Of a stretch of 64,000 nt of DNA, positions 9,444-60,692 are shown one piece after another. The stretch covers positions 92,897 to 156,896 of the forward strand of contig CAYHDI010000001.1 in NCBI GenBank assembly GCA_964355645.1. The letters run 5' to 3'. Each line of letters starts with the position of its first letter. The first letter of the stretch is position 1. This stretch comes from an uncultured Candidatus Saccharibacteria bacterium. Lineage in GTDB: Bacteria > Patescibacteriota > Minisyncoccia > Phycocordibacterales > Zambryskibacteraceae. A program made the translations under genes and the position numbers. The notes beneath the pieces were generated by a model that was given only the letters and a program-made list of their open reading frames with translations, was not told the origin of the DNA and ran no database searches.

Positions 9444-9803
9444 TCATGTTTTTAATTTTTTCTTAAAACCACCCAATTGCCGGGCAATACTAGACGCTTT
9501 TTCTTTGGCTATCAAGAAGTCTTTTTGATCAATTAGGTTGTTTGTTTTTAGAATGTCAACATTTGCTACTGTTTCATATAAAGAACCCAGCGCTATATCG
9601 AGAAAGTGGGAAAAATCCTTTCTAGAAGCTTTTCCGCTTCCTTCCGCAATATTAAGCACTATTGAGGAACTCGACCTTATCAGTTGAGCACTTAACTCAA
9701 ATCTGTATTCCTTTGGTAATTTTCTTATTATTCCTAGACAAAATGAAGACAAATCCTGGGCATCTTTGTAAACTGGCCAGTCTAGAAAATTGAATTGGTT
9801 CAC
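9444..9803 (-). CDS. four-helix-bundle protein (TIGR02436-like, '23S rRNA intervening-sequence protein' family)
   Basis: 119 aa with GTG start; LNIAEGSGKASRKDFSHFLDIALGSLYE is characteristic of the family. Lies between the two halves of virB4. Confidence 0.75.
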   Translation of the reverse strand: MNQFNFLDWPVYKDAQDLSSFCLGIIRKLPKEYRFELSAQLIRSSSSIVLNIAEGSGKASRKDFSHFLDIALGSLYETVANVDILKTNNLIDQKDFLIAKEKASSIARQLGGFKKKLKT

Positions 9804-9846
9804 TTGTTAATTGTTTATTATTTATTGTGCATCAAGCCTTTGAAAG

Positions 9847-10551
9847 CTAATTAGCTTTCAAAGGCTTTTCTGATTCCCCCGGGTTAAAGGCCTTGTAGAA
9901 CAATTCAATCACCTCTTCCGTCCCAAGGCGAGCCACTCGAATTCCCGTACGAATTAATCCTTGTTCAACTACACTCAAACGCTCTTCGAGCTGAGTGCGG
10001 TTCTCTTCGAATCCAGCTTCGGCCACAGCGGATTTTTCTTTTATGCTTTGCCCACCGAAAATTCCACCGAGGCTAGAAATCTTCCCGGCAGAAATTGTGG
10101 CCGGAGAATAAGAAACAACAACAAAAAAGTTCTTGGTCATGATGTTTGTGCTCTCGGTGAAGCTCTTGATGAATTCGATGTATTCTTTCGTTTGAATTTT
10201 CATCAAGTCATTCACCTGCTTTTTCTCCTGTTCTTCAAGCAGGGCGATGTATGGTCGGATATCAAGCTTTCTAGACTGGATGACAATTTGCACAGAAAAA
10301 TCCAGAGAATTTAGGAAGTCTTGAAATTGGAAAATAATCGCATTCTTCTCATCTTCTGATTTCAAAGAGAAGTTGAGGGACGAAGCAAGGAGGATGGCGC
10401 GCATTCCGCCGTCCTTCAAGAGGAGGATGCCGTCGCGAACTTCCTGAATCGGGACAAATTGTTGGGTCGAGTTTTTACTCGGGGACATAGAATCATTATA
10501 TATTAACAATAGACAATGGACTATAAACAATAAACTATAAATAATTAACAA
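9847..10551 (-). CDS. VirB4 N-terminal domain encoded as a separate ORF (likely true start at 10488, MSPSKNST)
   Basis: FVPIQEVRDGILLLKDGGMRAILLASSLNFSLKSEDE aligns with the VirB4 N-terminus (YIGHLSDHIVLLEDGSIMSIARIDGVAFELEE). Its stop codon sits in the centre of a 34-bp perfect palindrome. Confidence 0.6.
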   Translation of the reverse strand: MLIIYSLLFIVHCLLLIYNDSMSPSKNSTQQFVPIQEVRDGILLLKDGGMRAILLASSLNFSLKSEDEKNAIIFQFQDFLNSLDFSVQIVIQSRKLDIRPYIALLEEQEKKQVNDLMKIQTKEYIEFIKSFTESTNIMTKNFFVVVSYSPATISAGKISSLGGIFGGQSIKEKSAVAEAGFEENRTQLEERLSVVEQGLIRTGIRVARLGTEEVIELFYKAFNPGESEKPLKAN

Positions 10552-10574: not shown

Positions 10575-11033
10575 TTATTGTCTATTGTCTATAGTAACTT
10601 GTTTATTATCCTGTGTAACAGGATTGTTATTATCTCGAATATCTAAACTCCAAGACAAATCTTTGAGCTTGGATTCTGAAAGTTTAGGCACATAAATTTG
10701 TGGGGCTGGCTTATTGTTCATCGCATTTTGTTCATTGTTTATCATTGGCTTCTTTTCCTCTTTCTTCCAAACATAAAGCTTCGAAGAGGTGGAGTAGTGC
10801 AGAAAATCTTCAACCACTTGAATAAACGGACGTTCGTTCACTTTATAAAACGCGAGAGCTGCCCCGAAGACTGCGACAGGTATAGAAAGGATAATGGCCA
10901 CGAACATCGGCAATAGACTGAAGAAGATGACGCACAACCCCACTGCCCCGGCGATATAGATGAATTGTTTGAAGGTCAAAGGCCCGAACAGTTTGTCTTC
11001 AATCTCAATGAATTGAGGTACTTGGAATCGCAT
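10575..11033 (-). CDS. PrgI/VirB3-like T4SS membrane protein
   Basis: MRFQVPQFIEIEDKLFGPLTFKQFIYI, two TM helices, and ...FIQVVEDFLHYSTSSKLYVW match the PrgI family (pCF10 PrgI VRVPKEIREYKEKIIFGLNLRQFICL...YIQSIYRYQTSPKKRYY). Directly upstream of virB4, as in Gram-positive T4SSs. Confidence 0.6.
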   Translation of the reverse strand: MRFQVPQFIEIEDKLFGPLTFKQFIYIAGAVGLCVIFFSLLPMFVAIILSIPVAVFGAALAFYKVNERPFIQVVEDFLHYSTSSKLYVWKKEEKKPMINNEQNAMNNKPAPQIYVPKLSESKLKDLSWSLDIRDNNNPVTQDNKQVTIDNRQ

Positions 11034-11119
11034 GCATTAATGATAACAAAAAAACCGACCAAAATCTGGTCGGCTCCAACGTATAGAATGAAGAAAGTTT
11101 AATAAAGACCAGTCGCAAC

Positions 11120-11644
11120 CTAATGTACGAACAGAAGATAACCAACCACCACAATTATTGCCACGGCTAGTATTTCCAGTGGTGTAGTGGGTATTTCCAC
11201 ATTTGGATAACAGACTGAATGCCACGAATAACCATTCTTGAGAGTAGTTACCTCTTGGTAATCAGGAAATATCGGTAATGAGCATGTCGGGCAATTGTTT
11301 CTTGAAACTCTCAGTGGCCCATTTGAACCACATCCGTGGCACACTGATTCCACTTTTAGAACTCCTTGAGAAGACAGAGCTTTACCACACTCGCAACATC
11401 TTAGAGTTTTTGTAGTGACATTTACTGTACGAATTCTTTCATCCAAACAGCTTGCATGAATGTAGTGGCTCGACCAACCCAAAGGTTCACTTGTACGAAC
11501 CATTTGGTCTAGACGACCCATTTTTTGGCACAACCTACACTTAACATAATCAAAACGTTTTTCTCCACACCTCGGACACTTTTCAGCTGATTGGCTTATA
11601 GAATGTCCACATTTCACACACGGAACGAGTTTTATCGAAGACAT
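11120..11644 (-). CDS. multi zinc-ribbon protein with C-terminal TM anchor
   Basis: Repeated CxxC pairs (CVKCGH...CPRCG, CRLCQ, CCECG, CHGCG, CPTCS) and a C-terminal hydrophobic helix (LAVAIIVVVGYLLFV). A rho-independent terminator follows (GGAGCCGACCAGATTTTGGTCGGTTTTTTT on the minus strand, about 11046-11075). Confidence 0.5.
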   Translation of the reverse strand: MSSIKLVPCVKCGHSISQSAEKCPRCGEKRFDYVKCRLCQKMGRLDQMVRTSEPLGWSSHYIHASCLDERIRTVNVTTKTLRCCECGKALSSQGVLKVESVCHGCGSNGPLRVSRNNCPTCSLPIFPDYQEVTTLKNGYSWHSVCYPNVEIPTTPLEILAVAIIVVVGYLLFVH

Positions 11645-18661: not shown

Positions 18662-19324
18662 TTAGTTGCGAAGCCGTTTTCTCTTGTTGACACTCGGTGT
18701 CAACACAGATTCCCCCTCAAGTTCTTTCAGGAGGTCCTTCTTTTTAATGATGTCTTTTAGTGACTCTTCTGCGAACTTTTTATACTCCAGAATGTTTTTA
18801 AATTGTTCTAAAATTAAATTTTTTGTGCACAATTTATTGCCAGCCTTTCCCATATACTCATCCCAGCTTGATTTGTACAAAGCACTTTGAGGATAACGAT
18901 GGACTTTATTATTAAGGTTTACATAAACACTTGTATGCAAAAGTTGCTCATTTGTTTCAATATGCACGGCTTTAAATTTTCCTTGAAAAAGAGAGCCACT
19001 TCTTCTGTTTCTAATATTAAAATATTTTGCGTAACCCATTCCTATTTTATGCATAAATCGTTCCACCCCTTTGTCACAAACTTGACGGAGAATGAAATGA
19101 TAGTGGTTCGGATTTAAGCAATAGGCAATAAATTCTACTAATTTTTTACTCCTTGATTCGGAATGGTTTCTATCAATATTTCCAATCTTTTCTGAAGTAT
19201 TGAATTCAGACATTCCCTCAATAAATCTGTCTAAATCTTTAGAAGAAGTAAAAATAATTCGCTTATCAACCCCTCTGTTGAAAATGTGGTAAAATTCATT
19301 TTCTTCAAATTTTAAGTTTCGCAT
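18662..19324 (-). CDS. Y1 (HUH) transposase, IS200/RAYT-like
   Basis: HUH-type motif NPNHYHFIL with a downstream catalytic-Tyr region. Flanked on both sides by the identical hairpin GTTGACACTCGGTGTCAAC. Confidence 0.65.
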   Translation of the reverse strand: MRNLKFEENEFYHIFNRGVDKRIIFTSSKDLDRFIEGMSEFNTSEKIGNIDRNHSESRSKKLVEFIAYCLNPNHYHFILRQVCDKGVERFMHKIGMGYAKYFNIRNRRSGSLFQGKFKAVHIETNEQLLHTSVYVNLNNKVHRYPQSALYKSSWDEYMGKAGNKLCTKNLILEQFKNILEYKKFAEESLKDIIKKKDLLKELEGESVLTPSVNKRKRLRN

Positions 19325-19370
19325 ATTTCTTTATTTGCTTCACATTATCATGTTGACACTCGGTGTCAAC
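18686..19370. mobile_element. REP-flanked RAYT unit (palindrome-Y1 transposase-palindrome)
   Basis: Identical 19-nt hairpins (8-bp stem GTTGACAC/GTGTCAAC, loop TCG) at 18686-18704 and 19352-19370 bracket the Y1 transposase gene. Confidence 0.6.
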
Positions 19371-26500: not shown

Positions 26501-27061
26501 TTATCTTGAGACTCTTTCACGAGTTCGTCTATCTTCCAAACCCATCAAAAACTTTTTTGGATTGGCATCGAGATCGAAGAAGTCATCGGCGACTTCAATC
26601 AGTTTGGCTGACGAGGATTTCCCGAAGGCCACCACTTCTACTTGTGTACCGTGAGTGTTTTGTAAATATTCTATAAGAGAAACGAAGTCGCCGTCGCCCG
26701 AAGCGATGATGACTGTGTCTAAGTGTCCTGCCATTTTAACCGCGTCCATGGCAAGGTCGATGTCCCAATTGGCTTTCTTCGCTCCACCGATGAAAATCTG
26801 TAGAGGTTTGGTGCGGGTTTCTATCCCTACTTTTGAAAGGGCTTCAAAGAAGCTTTTCTCTTCCCCCGTTTCGGTCGAAGCCACATAAGCAATAGCTCGA
26901 ACGAGGGTTCGTCCGTCTAAAACTTCTTTTAAAATGGCTCCGAAATTTGCTTTAGAATGATAGAGATTCTTCGCACTATGATAAATGTTTTGCGTATCTA
27001 TGAAAATGCCGACACGCTGGGCCTTGTGTTTGATAATTGACATGAAAATTATTCTTAACAC
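26501..27061 (-). CDS. NYN-domain (LabA/DUF88) protein
   Basis: RVGIFIDTQNIYHSAK...DIDLAMDAVKMAGHLDTVIIASGDGDFVSLIEYL matches the NYN fold motifs. Confidence 0.8.
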   Translation of the reverse strand: MLRIIFMSIIKHKAQRVGIFIDTQNIYHSAKNLYHSKANFGAILKEVLDGRTLVRAIAYVASTETGEEKSFFEALSKVGIETRTKPLQIFIGGAKKANWDIDLAMDAVKMAGHLDTVIIASGDGDFVSLIEYLQNTHGTQVEVVAFGKSSSAKLIEVADDFFDLDANPKKFLMGLEDRRTRERVSR

Positions 27062-27092
27062 TCGGTGTTGAGATTCCCAAACACCGAGTGTT
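27057..27092. repeat. REP-like perfect inverted repeat AACACTCGGTGTT-N10-AACACCGAGTGTT
   Basis: 13-bp arms seen directly. The core ACACTCGGTGT is shared with the RAYT-flanking hairpins. Confidence 0.7.
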
Positions 27093-37501: not shown

Positions 37502-38026
37502 TTATTTTACATTAAATCCAATTTTCCTGTGCTTGGTTTCGGGTGGAATCATAAGTGCCCGAATAGCATCGAAGACAACCGAAAAATTTTTGTCATATTT
37601 GGCTTCGAGTTGTTTGAGTTTTTCGGCCAAGTCGGCATGAGTGGCCAGGAGTTCACGAAGTTTTACGAATGTTCTGACTATTTCAATGCTTACTTGAATG
37701 GCCCGATTACTGTGCAAAGTGTTTGCGACCATTAAAGCGCCATACTCGGTAAATACATGAGGTAAATATCTCCGGCCTCCATGTGTAGAACTTGAGATTC
37801 CAGATTGGAATCTCAAGTTGGTGGACTCTTCCGCGGTGAGTTGAAACATGAAGTCCTCTGGAAATCGATCGAGATTGCGTCTAACAGCTTTGTTTAAGTT
37901 AAACGTGGTAACACCATATAATTCTGCCAAATCACTATCCAAGAGGACTTTTTCTTCACGAACAAAAAGTATTCGTCTTTCAATCATGCGAACAGAAACG
38001 AGAGCCACATTTTTATTTTGTTTCAT
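37502..38026 (-). CDS. ORF6N-domain protein (KilA-N-like)
   Basis: VLLDSDLAELYGVTTFNLNKAVRRNLDRFPEDFMFQLTAEE...GGRRYLPHVFTEYGALMVANTLHS matches the ORF6N family. Confidence 0.75.
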   Translation of the reverse strand: MKQNKNVALVSVRMIERRILFVREEKVLLDSDLAELYGVTTFNLNKAVRRNLDRFPEDFMFQLTAEESTNLRFQSGISSSTHGGRRYLPHVFTEYGALMVANTLHSNRAIQVSIEIVRTFVKLRELLATHADLAEKLKQLEAKYDKNFSVVFDAIRALMIPPETKHRKIGFNVK

Positions 38027-39589: not shown

Positions 39590-39660
39590 TGCGGGATGGG
39601 GGAATCGGACTCCCGACTACAGTTTGGAAAACTGTCGTTTTACCACTAAACTAATCCCGC
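39590..39660 (-). tRNA. tRNA-Gly (anticodon TCC)
   Basis: Hand-folded cloverleaf: acceptor GCGGGAT/ATCCCGC, anticodon arm ACAGT-TTTCCAA-ACTGT, T-loop TCCGATT. One A-C mismatch in the T-stem. Confidence 0.65.
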
Positions 39661-39672
39661 ATTGGTATTCTT

Positions 39673-39743
39673 TCGGGGCGCCGAGAATCGAACTCGGACC
39701 ACATGCTCCCAAAGCAAGTATACTACCACTATACTACGCCCCG
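39673..39743 (-). tRNA. tRNA-Pro (anticodon TGG)
   Basis: Acceptor CGGGGCG/CGCCCCG, anticodon loop TTTGGGA, T-arm CCGAG-TTCGATT-CTCGG. Confidence 0.6.
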
Positions 39744-39757
39744 TTTATATTCATCTT

Positions 39758-39828
39758 TCGGGCTGCCGGGACTCGAACCCGGGTCTCACGAACCCGAATC
39801 GTGAATAATACCTCTATAATACAGCCCG
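39758..39828 (-). tRNA. tRNA-Pro (anticodon CGG)
   Basis: Acceptor CGGGCTG/CAGCCCG, anticodon arm CACGA-TTCGGGT-TCGTG, T-arm CCGGG-TTCGAGT-CCCGG. The D-arm is atypical. Confidence 0.55.
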
Positions 39829-39916
39829 TAGGAATTTATCCTAGCATGGAGAAGGTTATTTACCAAAGAAAAATAAACTCGATTTTTTTCGTAAGATAAG
39901 ATATTATCATCTAACT

Positions 39917-39987
39917 GCGGGTATGGTTCAGTGGTAGAACAACTGGTTGCCAATCAGTAGATGGGAGTCCGATTCTCCCTACCCGCA
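39917..39987 (+). tRNA. tRNA-Gly (anticodon GCC)
   Basis: GCGGGTA...TGGTTCAGTGGTAGAACA...ACTGG-TTGCCAA-TCAGT...GGGAG-TCCGATT-CTCCC-TACCCGC-A folds as a clean cloverleaf. Confidence 0.7.
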
Positions 39988-40013
39988 CTGAGAAAAATAT
40001 ACTAATATCGATT

Positions 40014-40087
40014 GGTGCCCCCGCTAGGACTCGAACCTAGAACGACTGCTTCGAAGGCAGTTATGATATCCATTTCACTACGGGAGC
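40014..40087 (-). tRNA. tRNA-Arg (anticodon TCG), CCA encoded
   Basis: Acceptor GCTCCCG/CGGGGGC with a 3' ACCA, anticodon arm ACTGC-CTTCGAA-GCAGT, T-arm CTAGG-TTCGAGT-CCTAG. Confidence 0.7.
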
Positions 40088-59009: not shown

Positions 59010-60692
59010 ATGACCTTTCCTGAAATTTTTGAAGTTTTGCTTGAAGAACGAGGACTAGTAGGTGATTCTCGAGAAGAATTTCTGCATCCTGATTATGGGA
59101 AACTCCACCATCCCTTGCTTTTGCCGGATATGGAGAAAGCTCGAGACAAAGTGATTGAAGTCATGGGTCGAAATGAGCACATTGTGGTTTTTTCTGACTA
59201 CGATGCGGATGGAATTCCCGGAGCAGTAGTGCTCTCGGACTTTTTCCATCGGGCGAAATATGAAAATGTTTCATTTTATATTCCACATCGACACGATGAA
59301 GGCTTCGGTTTGAACATGGAAGCAGTGGATGAGATGGCCGAACGTGGAGCGAAGCTTATCATCACCGTGGATTGTGGAACCGCGGATATAAAGGAGGTGG
59401 CGAAGGCAAACAAAAAAGGCATGGAGGTGATTATCACAGATCATCACGAGAGTTCAAAATTACCCAAAGCGTATGCGATAGTCAACCCAAAGAGAAAAGA
59501 TAGTACTTATCCTTTCAATCCGCCAGCCGGCGGACTTTGTGGAGCGGCCTTAGCTTACAAACTAGTTCAAGCAATTCTTATGAAAGAAGAATCCGCCAGT
59601 TGGCGGATTGGGATTAAAACAGGACAAGAGAAGTGGTCGCTCGACATGGTGGGTATCGCCACACTTTCAGACATGGTTCCTCTCGTCGGGGAGAATAGAA
59701 TTTTGGCCAAGTTCGGTTTGGATGTTTTGCGCAAATCCCCGCGCCCCGGACTTTCAGCTCTCTTCAATAAACTCAAGATTGAACAAAGATTTTTGACCGA
59801 GGATGATGTCACTTTCATGATTACTCCGCGCATCAATGCTGCGTCGAGAATGGGTAAACCCGAAGATGCGTTCAAACTTCTTTCGACTACAAATATGTTG
59901 GAAGCCGTAAGACTGGCCGAACATTTGGAAAAAATAAACAATGAACGCAAAGGCACGGTCGCTGCACTTGTGAAGGAGGCGAAGAAACACCTCGAGGCTC
60001 GCGAAAAGATAAATTCGGTGATTGTGGTGGGGAATCCGGAGTGGAGGCCATCACTCCTCGGCCTTGTAGCCAACTCTCTCGTCGAAGAATATATGCGACC
60101 GGCGTTTGTGTGGGGAAGAGATGGAGATAATGTGCTCAAGGGTTCGTGTCGTTCATACAATGGATACAATTTGTTCGATTTGATGAACGGAGCAAAGGAT
60201 TCGTTTCTAGAATTTGGTGGACATGCTGGTGCGGGAGGATTTTCTGTGACCCTTGAGCAGATTACAAAGCTTGAAGAAAAACTTTCGGAAATGGTCGGGA
60301 AACACTCGGTGTCAAAGGATGCCCAGACACCGAGTGTTGAGGAGACCACGAAAAAAATTCAGATTTCACTTTCAGACATCGGAGAAGATTTGTGGAAAAC
60401 CGTAGAACAATTCGCTCCATTCGGTATGGGGAATCAGAAACCAATTTTCAATATCAAGAATGCAGAAATCAAACAAGTTCGACAATTCGGCAAAGAAAAT
60501 AATCATTTAGAGATTGTATTTAAAAGTGGAGCAAAGGATATAAAAGCCATCTCCTTCTTCTCTTCTCCTACTTCCTACTCCTTTCTCCCTACTCCAGGAA
60601 TCTCCTGCACTCTCACCGCCTGTCTCGAGAAATCCTATTTCCGCAATCGTCCAGAAGTCCGTCTTCGAATCGTTGATATTATTGAACAATGA
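59010..60692 (+). CDS. recJ: single-stranded-DNA-specific exonuclease RecJ
   Basis: DHH motifs (VVFSDYDADGIPGAV; VIITDHHE), a DHHA1 domain and a C-terminal OB-like domain. Contains an in-frame REP-like palindrome at 60301-60338. Confidence 0.9.
   Translation: MTFPEIFEVLLEERGLVGDSREEFLHPDYGKLHHPLLLPDMEKARDKVIEVMGRNEHIVVFSDYDADGIPGAVVLSDFFHRAKYENVSFYIPHRHDEGFGLNMEAVDEMAERGAKLIITVDCGTADIKEVAKANKKGMEVIITDHHESSKLPKAYAIVNPKRKDSTYPFNPPAGGLCGAALAYKLVQAILMKEESASWRIGIKTGQEKWSLDMVGIATLSDMVPLVGENRILAKFGLDVLRKSPRPGLSALFNKLKIEQRFLTEDDVTFMITPRINAASRMGKPEDAFKLLSTTNMLEAVRLAEHLEKINNERKGTVAALVKEAKKHLEAREKINSVIVVGNPEWRPSLLGLVANSLVEEYMRPAFVWGRDGDNVLKGSCRSYNGYNLFDLMNGAKDSFLEFGGHAGAGGFSVTLEQITKLEEKLSEMVGKHSVSKDAQTPSVEETTKKIQISLSDIGEDLWKTVEQFAPFGMGNQKPIFNIKNAEIKQVRQFGKENNHLEIVFKSGAKDIKAISFFSSPTSYSFLPTPGISCTLTACLEKSYFRNRPEVRLRIVDIIEQ

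Follow-up and report, generated by a model that had tools for sequence, protein, structure and literature searches.

Do a transposase-like gene and the palindromes scattered around it belong to one system? The question is raised by a 64,000-nucleotide stretch of DNA from an uncultured Candidatus Saccharibacteria bacterium (the whole stretch analysed here, called the window), in which a Y1/HUH tyrosine-transposase-like gene stands between two identical hairpins and the core of these hairpins recurs at a distance. The original prediction, made from the letters of the window, had seen here a system of the REP/RAYT type, that is, repetitive extragenic palindromes (REPs) with a REP-associated tyrosine transposase (RAYT). 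Our analysis makes it probable that the gene and the palindromes form a REPtron-like system of Patescibacteria, consisting of a Y1 (HUH) gene for a single-strand DNA endonuclease/transferase, domesticated and passed on vertically, its cognate hairpins, and inverted hairpin doublets that resemble REPINs (REP doublets forming hairpins).

The Y1 Gene and Its Hairpins

The Y1 gene (18662-19324, minus strand) encodes a protein of 220 amino acids, which carries the HUH motif NPNHYHFIL at H74/H76 and a putative catalytic tyrosine, Tyr134, in the sequence SVYVNLN. The protein passes the Pfam model Y1_Tnp (PF01797) narrowly, with 25.8 bits at a cut-off of 23. A protein search with it returned 2,879 relatives, typically about 55% identical, and those carrying a source name bear Patescibacteria, Paceibacteria or Minisyncoccia labels. 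H74, H76 and Tyr134 (the latter in the motif YVNLN) are invariant in an alignment of 51 homologues. An AlphaFold (AF2) model built on this alignment has a predicted local distance difference test (pLDDT) score of 85.6 and includes a helical C-terminal extension of approximately 70 residues. The top match of the model in the Protein Data Bank (PDB), obtained with Foldseek, was 4ER8 (E=2.9e-5), the E. coli REP-associated tyrosine transposase (TnpA_REP) bound to a REP hairpin, followed by the TnpA proteins of IS608 and ISDra2. The likeness to TnpA_REP was recovered by the fold search only, not by PDB sequence searches. As judged from its sequence and predicted structure, the gene product is a divergent Y1 HUH enzyme whose nearest solved fold is that of a REP-associated transposase.

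The two hairpins bracketing the gene lie exactly where they had been predicted. The one at the 3' end, GTTGACACTCGGTGTCAAC (18686-18704), is situated within the last codons of the Y1 open reading frame (ORF) and encodes LTPSVN, while the upstream one, GTTGACAC-TCG-GTGTCAAC (19352-19370), is the identical 19-mer and occupies positions -46 to -28 relative to the ATG. The 11-mer core ACACTCGGTGT, counted on either strand, is present in the window in six exact copies and one copy with a single mismatch. For the control, the window (G+C 40.8%) was shuffled 100 times with its dinucleotides preserved; the shuffled sequences held 0.5 copies on average and three at most, and none of the 100 reached seven. 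The six exact copies are divided between the two single 19-nt hairpins and two inverted doublets, which take up the other four. One doublet, AACACTCGGTGTT-N10-AACACCGAGTGTT (27057-27092), is located between rpsO and an NYN gene, after the stop codon of the former and before the start codon of the latter, and was present as the prediction had it; it is missing from the equivalent rpsO-NYN spacer in three related loci (L001, L003 and L004). The other lies within recJ and is described below. Both have perfect arms of 13 nt. Folded as single-stranded DNA, the single hairpins reach -7.1 and -8.6 kcal/mol and the doublets, as long hairpins, -13.7 (27057-27092) and -14.5 kcal/mol, and the z-scores of all four elements against shuffled controls range from -4 to -7. 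An Rfam scan of the window gave five tRNAs only, and no RNA family was found at the elements.

The Y1 gene occurs once within the window. In all six lineages examined (the window, L001, L003, L004, L008 and L011), it is placed between a uvrD/pcrA-type helicase gene on one side and rsmA on the other, and the wider neighbourhood, with rpsO, the NYN gene, a Mg-chelatase-like gene and a LysM/M23 peptidase gene, is shared as well. The Y1 proteins of the five relatives are 83, 72, 66, 55 and 54% identical to that of the window. As the gene keeps the same chromosomal place across six diverged lineages, we conclude that it is fixed and vertically inherited and is not a hopping insertion sequence. Y1 paralogues are present in some other genomes, e.g., in MFIM01 (L076 and L090).

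The hairpins are conserved together with the gene, and both the upstream and the 3'-end sites are occupied in all five relatives. L001, L003 and L004 keep the stem GTTGACAC/GTGTCAAC with the loop altered or flipped (CGA, TCG, or TAA in both copies). The stem of L008, GTGGACAC/GTGTCCAC, is compensated, and that of L011, GTCGTCTC/GAGACGAC, is unrelated. The stems of all copies in one locus match each other. In L008 and L011, an extra in-frame hairpin is found inside the Y1 gene. The neighbouring rsmA gene has a hairpin site that L002 and L008 have occupied, each in a frame of its own and with the stem of its own lineage; the same site is empty in the window, L003, L004 and L011.

The same two genes gave further observations. 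At 19139-19150 (Y1 codons 59-62, HSES), the window has CATTCCGAATCA where L008 and L086 bear the first internal hairpin (GHRVST = cacCGAgtgtc). This segment could be a decayed hairpin relic, for which a match of 8 of 12 bases to CACTCGGTGTCA is weak evidence. The rsmA genes of L002 (L002:1440-1560) and L011 (~10678-11577) contain a second in-frame insert of approximately 37 amino acids, SPSPRRREKGENITGTPLLKSRRGIDSNDHRSGGEVW, which is missing from the window, L003, L004 and L008, and the DNA of which holds another palindrome, CCCTTCTCC..GGAGAAGGG. Peptides akin to this insert (..SPQAPLL..RRGD) are present in the RecJ linkers of the proteins P0122, P0124 and P0128. Together, the insert and its lookalikes look like a separate family of in-frame palindromic elements, as far as the sequences tell.

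The arrangement seen in the close relatives extends to a large metagenomic family. Metagenome contigs were scanned with the Y1 protein alignment, which yielded at least 532 loci; the best 80 were examined, and the 77 of them that have both flanks were the base for the site counts. Two to five perfect hairpins of the same stem, with 3-nt loops, were found in 60 of the 77 loci at four conserved positions: upstream of the gene (median -38), at about +178, at about +451, and at the 3' end (about +660). Because imperfect hairpins, for instance in L110, escaped detection, the layout is present in at least 60 loci. The upstream site was occupied in 55 of these loci and the 3'-end site in 44, and there were essentially no other repeated hairpins. 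Both internal sites are in frame and fall in loops of the structural model, one at the low-confidence residues 51-54 and the other in the stretch after the helix bearing the tyrosine.

All these hairpins have the same geometry, a perfect stem of 8-11 bp with a 3-nt loop. Their outer stem AC-TTGG...CCAA-GT (ACTTGG/CCAAGT) is approximately 95% conserved. The stems within a locus are identical, in either orientation, and those of different loci differ in the 4 bp adjoining the loop, where at least 24 variants were counted among 61 loci; the commonest, ACAC, is the type of the window. Within a locus, the loop at one site is often the reverse complement of the loop at another, and therefore the hairpins are copies of one another in either orientation. 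The co-divergence of protein and stem is weak (59% versus 56% identity). As only 24 of the 61 loci have the same inner stem as their nearest neighbour by protein, the inner stem changes faster than the protein.

Doublets Dispersed Inside Genes

To follow the doublets beyond the window, one genome per bacterial and archaeal species was scanned for the pattern ACACTCGGTGT-N(4-34)-ACACCGAGTGT. The scan returned at least 120 stretches, while about one would be expected by chance according to our own estimate (596 Gb x 31 gap lengths / 4^22). Nearly all matches listed were in metagenome-assembled genomes (MAGs) of Patescibacteria, among them Giovannoni-, Vogel-, Kaiser-, Niyogi-, Portnoy- and Sungbacteria, bins labelled Saccharibacteria, and others. 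The genome JAUSGE01 has at least 32 doublets, and four other genomes have at least 12, 9, 7 and 6. The dispersal of copies that had been predicted within the window is seen there in its two REPIN-like inverted doublets, and further copies are abundant in these other genomes, in which the doublet form dominates. Single cores are rare, and therefore the doublet is the unit. A few matches came from MAGs labelled Chloroflexi, Gammaproteobacteria, Clostridia, Planctomycetota, Tardiphaga and Acutalibacteraceae (L015, L018, L028, L032, L044, L060, L066, L101 and L108). Some of these, with a high G+C content and longer, unrelated outer stems, may be chance matches or unrelated palindromes; those of CAYHPG and JACRLA look like the Patescibacteria type and may lie on mis-binned contigs.

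The doublets fall into subfamilies, which vary in spacer and outer stem. Those of CAYWCU are two complete ACTTGG-ACAC-TCG-GTGT-CCAAGT hairpins, and hairpins of this very type flank the Y1 genes of L142, L143, L175, L181 and L201. In blocks that contain both doublets and a Y1 homologue, the stems correspond, with MFIM01 (see below) as a counter-example. In the Y1 locus L039, which belongs to JAUSGE01, there is a doublet inside the gene, and the 3' hairpin has the GGACAC stem that is also found in the dispersed doublets of that genome. A doublet is found just upstream of the Y1 gene in L051, and a TGTTGACAC hairpin upstream of that in L086. Other stem types are likewise dispersed, at times as doublets, which suggests several parallel hairpin families per genome.

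Most doublets are situated inside genes. A stop-free frame of at least 150 codons spans 91 of the 130 doublets, and one of at least 100 codons spans 104. The intragenic doublets read T-L-G-V...T-P-S-V in 59 of 89 cases. In 80 of 128 doublets the spacer is 7, 10, 13 or 16 nt long, which puts both arms in the same codon phase, and 93 of the 128 are stop-free in five or six frames. Insertion polymorphism was observed directly by comparing orthologous sites: a 48-nt insert distinguishes the filled from the empty site in the pair L033/L207, and a 54-nt insert in L083/L148. Three more orthologue pairs differ at the doublet site (L113/L092, L076/L070 and L018/L071). A 51-nt element is present at orthologous sites in opposite orientations (L014 and L130 versus L049), and one orthologous site holds different subfamilies in different frames (L057 versus L083). 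In-frame insertion in the manner of the Rickettsia palindromic elements (RPEs), which the prediction had noted for the recJ of the window, thus extends well beyond it.

The example of the window is recJ (59010-60692, plus strand; TIGR00644, 489 bits), which hosts the inverted doublet AACACTCGGTGTC-N12-GACACCGAGTGTT (60301-60338). The doublet is in frame and encodes GKHSVSKDAQTPSVEE. With its outer flanks the element reaches approximately 48 nt (60297-60344), GGGAAACACTCGGTGTC-N12-GACACCGAGTGTTGAGGAG, and the flanks GGGAAA...TGAGGAG match a 51-nt family, CCGGGAAAACACTCGGTGT..ACACCGAGTGTTGAGGAGG, which is common in Giovannonibacteria and is seen in other MAGs. The predicted location in an inter-domain linker was confirmed, as the element lies between the Pfam domains DHHA1 (residues 336-429) and RecJ_OB (451-556). 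The length of the predicted insertion, about 14 codons, fared less well. In a comparison of 60 orthologues the linker proved hypervariable in length, and the net excess of the window over typical orthologues is approximately 5-10 residues; an insertion in kind is retained, and a clean one of 14 codons was rejected, its exact length being unreadable in so variable a linker. The recJ linker of L213 contains one complete GTTGACACCGAGTGTCAAC hairpin in another frame, read VDTECQ, and that of L009 contains a different palindrome. The recJ linker is, therefore, better described as a recurrent site for different palindromes. No RecJ orthologue was found to have the same peptide minus the palindrome: P0121, the one orthologue with this peptide, was compared as a protein, and the nearest orthologue compared as DNA, that of L213, carries a single full hairpin.

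Two side observations concern recJ. In P0121, the closest RecJ in the database (92% identical), the doublet-encoded peptide is followed by ..EETTKNSDFTFRH.. where the window has ..EETTKKIQISLSDIG.. The difference is an apparent frameshift at the A-run 60353-60359 directly after the element; either true polymorphism or an error in sequencing could account for it. In L009, the region adjoining recJ (L009:12945-14835) carries a bAvd-like gene, a reverse transcriptase gene (RVT_1) and an RNase H gene, and this cassette looks like a diversity-generating retroelement.

Elsewhere in the window, three other features were recorded. Inside the ORF 37502-38026 (minus strand), the sequence AACTTGAGATTCCA-gat-TGGAATCTCAAGTT (37789-37819) forms a perfect hairpin (stem 14 bp, loop 3 nt) and encodes ..NLRFQSGISS..; it starts with AACTTG, which resembles the outer stem of the Y1-family hairpins, and may be another in-frame hairpin or native gene sequence. 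A perfect 34-nt palindrome, AAGCCTTTGAAAGCTAATTAGCTTTCAAAGGCTT (9834-9867), lies at the junction of the ORFs 9444-9803 and 9847-10551 (both minus strand). Five tRNA genes are clustered on both strands at 39590-40087.

Proposed Mobilisation and Its Rivals

The anatomy of the system, its conservation and the insertion polymorphism are observed; mobilisation by the Y1 protein is inferred. By analogy with TnpA_REP and the TnpA proteins of the IS200/IS605 family (PMC3479197, PMC8266576), the Y1 protein would mobilise the doublets as follows. The enzyme would bind the hairpin extruded on single-stranded DNA, its tyrosine would cut beside the hairpin, and strands would be transferred, so that hairpins and doublets are copied or replaced. 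Such copy-and-replace activity would keep the copies of the locus identical and would seed new doublets. Because these genomes have almost no intergenic DNA, the insertions that survive would be those in frame, in tolerant loops or linkers of proteins, with lengths that are multiples of three and no stop codons. The survival of only in-frame, stop-free insertions would explain the translation-neutral design of the element, which appears shaped for harmless translation: it is stop-free in five to six of six frames, and the phase of its spacer would make both strands read T-L-G-V...T-P-S-V.

Several results weigh against a REPtron-like system. The Y1 protein scored 25.6 bits with the NCBIfam RAYT model REP_Tyr_transpos (NF047646, an equivalog), far below its cut-off of 80, and the PDB sequence searches, performed with the single sequence and with the 51-sequence profile, found no RAYT and nothing else relevant. 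The GTAG/CGTC tag is missing: it is absent at the hairpins of the window, and GTAG/CTAC lies within 8 nt of 22 of 167 hairpins of the family, which by a rough estimate is about the level of chance. In the place of the tag stands the conserved outer stem AC-TTGG..CCAA-GT. The RAYT-type label of the original prediction is consequently upheld as regards the Y1 HUH motif, the fold of 4ER8 and the Pfam family, and fails at the NCBIfam cut-off and the tag. As to the doublets, their stems in the window (AACAC/GTGTT) are shorter than the gene-flanking ones (GTTGACAC/GTGTCAAC), and their count for the source organism is two, within the 64-kb window. For most variants, same-stem copies beyond the Y1 locus are sparse, with approximately 11 extra copies in about 300 kb of flanks, and for many family members the hairpins may be mainly local. 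In MFIM01, where ACAC doublets are numerous, the hairpins that flank the two Y1 paralogues are of the CGGC and CGGT types, and the blocks examined from this genome showed no paralogue with ACAC flanks. The link between the Y1 gene and the doublets is drawn from their shared core sequence and co-location.

The sparseness of copies far from the gene bears on a regulatory explanation, in which the hairpins control the Y1 gene in cis (as an operator, as an attenuator, or by autoregulation at the DNA or RNA level) and the doublets have not arisen by transposition but are sites bound by the same protein in a regulatory or structural role. We regard this as unlikely, although most stem variants do have few dispersed copies and the four hairpin positions are fixed relative to the gene. 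The upstream hairpin may be part of a promoter region. In the loci L133-L212, it is followed on its 3' side by the 10-nt consensus GTGgTAtaAT, which ends approximately 10 nt before the ATG; in 55 loci this sequence follows the hairpin directly, so that the hairpin overlaps the likely promoter. The consensus, taken as such, resembles an extended -10 box, and it suggests leaderless or near-leaderless Y1 transcripts from a promoter overlapping the hairpin. Against this, a strict scan for promoters and terminators found nothing around the Y1 gene or at the hairpins of the window. The sequence TTGACA in the window stem had been considered as a -35 box; the idea was dropped because of the null scan, and TTGACA is a by-product of the stem of this lineage. 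Furthermore, most dispersed doublets lie in unrelated coding sequences, in either orientation and as indels relative to orthologues, and the invariant HUH motif and tyrosine would be superfluous in a pure binding protein. Regulation and mobilisation are, in any case, compatible and not mutually exclusive.

A still less probable explanation takes the doublets for a genome-signature motif unrelated to Y1, either an uptake signal sequence (USS) or DNA uptake sequence (DUS), or a palindrome driven by repair or methylation like the highly iterated palindrome HIP1; the hairpins flanking Y1 would then be merely further copies. The identical 11-mer is indeed common to many distinct Patescibacteria lineages, as in family-wide uptake signals, the DUS of Neisseria also occur as inverted pairs, and these bacteria have competence genes, ComEC being seen in L009. 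Uptake signals, however, arise by substitution and add no residues, while the differences here are discrete inserts or deletions of 48-54 nt. Nor does a single uptake signal explain why the quite different stems of other family members still match within each Y1 locus and thus co-vary with it, and hairpins are much denser in and near the Y1 gene than elsewhere.

It is very improbable that the 685-bp hairpin-ORF-hairpin unit is an autonomous IS200-type insertion sequence lying here by chance, since its IS200-like size and layout (a Y1 gene between subterminal hairpins) and its fold, matching the TnpA proteins of IS608 and ISDra2, are set against its presence at the same uvrD-rsmA site in six lineages down to 54% protein identity, its single copy in the window, its end hairpins, which are identical and not distinct left and right ends, and the family layout with the 3' hairpin and two further copies inside the coding sequence. 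All three rivals are rated much lower than the REPtron-like system.

Relation to Known Systems and Significance

Most known REP/RAYT systems come from Proteobacteria, and their elements are considered extragenic. The reference set for our comparison was formed by the REPtrons of E. coli, Pseudomonas and Stenotrophomonas, in which a RAYT (TnpA_REP) is associated with REPs, bacterial interspersed mosaic elements (BIMEs) and REPINs (PMC3333891, PMC3116915, PMC3479197, PMC8266576, PMC5581495). Like these, the Patescibacteria system has a Y1 HUH gene that is present once, stays in place and is inherited vertically, with its cognate palindromes at its borders. The occurrence of the palindromes elsewhere in the genome, typically as inverted doublets (BIME/REPIN), is a probable further likeness, with two doublets in the window and more in other Patescibacteria MAGs. 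The hairpin geometry is that of the group 3 REPs of S. maltophilia, which have a perfect 8-bp stem and a 3-nt loop, and the concentration of copies near the gene recalls the REPtrons of Marinomonas (both PMC8266576); the best structural match of the enzyme is, as mentioned, 4ER8.

The differences are equally clear. The enzyme of 220 amino acids, with its helical extension of about 70 residues, falls far below the NCBIfam RAYT cut-off, the GTAG/CGTC tag is missing, and the host belongs to the Patescibacteria. While REPs are extragenic, the elements described here are mainly intragenic and in frame (91 of 130 doublets), as in recJ, in rsmA of L002 and L008, and in the Y1 gene. Two hairpin copies stand in frame in the gene of the enzyme itself, and the outer stem ACTTGG/CCAAGT is conserved while the 4 bp adjoining the loop vary between loci. 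Three of these features, namely the in-frame hairpins in the enzyme's own gene, the conserved handle combined with a fast-changing inner stem, and the predominantly intragenic doublets, are not reported for REPtrons. In the literature searched, nothing was found on RAYTs, REPINs or palindromic elements inserted in frame for Patescibacteria, the candidate phyla radiation (CPR) or Parcubacteria.

The IS200/IS605 elements (IS608, ISDra2) resemble the Patescibacteria unit in the Y1 HUH fold, in the hairpins at both ends of the gene that are recognised on single-stranded DNA and, for IS200, in the overall size of approximately 0.7 kb. They differ from it in that the unit is not mobile as a whole, has identical end hairpins, is without tnpB, and remains syntenic across deep divergence.

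The closest precedent for palindromes inserted in frame is provided by the RPEs, reportedly described by Ogata et al. in 2000 as selfish DNA of palindromic form that is inserted into protein-coding genes without breaking their frame. In both cases palindromic repeats lie in frame in the ORFs of a reduced genome, peptide segments are added at tolerant places, and presence or absence differs among orthologues. RPEs are approximately 100-150 bp long, and we know of no mobilising enzyme for them; the units described here, which go together with an identifiable Y1 gene, measure 19-51 nt. The comparison with RPEs, which are mentioned in PMC10969869, is one of habit and length. What sets the present case apart is that a RAYT-like enzyme can be identified beside palindromes that live inside genes.

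A more far-reaching interpretation, which we offer tentatively and consider doubtful as a whole, would combine all of these features. The elements would represent an undescribed large class of REPtron-like systems of Patescibacteria, with ACTTGG/CCAAGT as a handle and the fast-changing 4 bp as an "address", and with copies kept identical by the enzyme's own copy-and-replace. The four hairpins in the enzyme's own gene would act as a feedback or self-limiting switch, and the doublets would be translation-neutral cassettes, stop-free in all frames and reading TLGV..TPSV on both strands.

For the study of hairpin recognition, the family offers ample natural variation: the inner stem occurs in at least 24 variants, each gene has four fixed sites, and the loci number in the hundreds. 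In the annotation of MAGs, in-frame hairpins inflate linkers and may pass for lineage-specific motifs. A REPtron-like system of this kind would help to account for part of the unusual insertions and variable lengths seen among the proteins of Patescibacteria; if the more far-reaching interpretation were true, it would continually supply insertions to linkers and loops throughout the proteomes of these minimal genomes.

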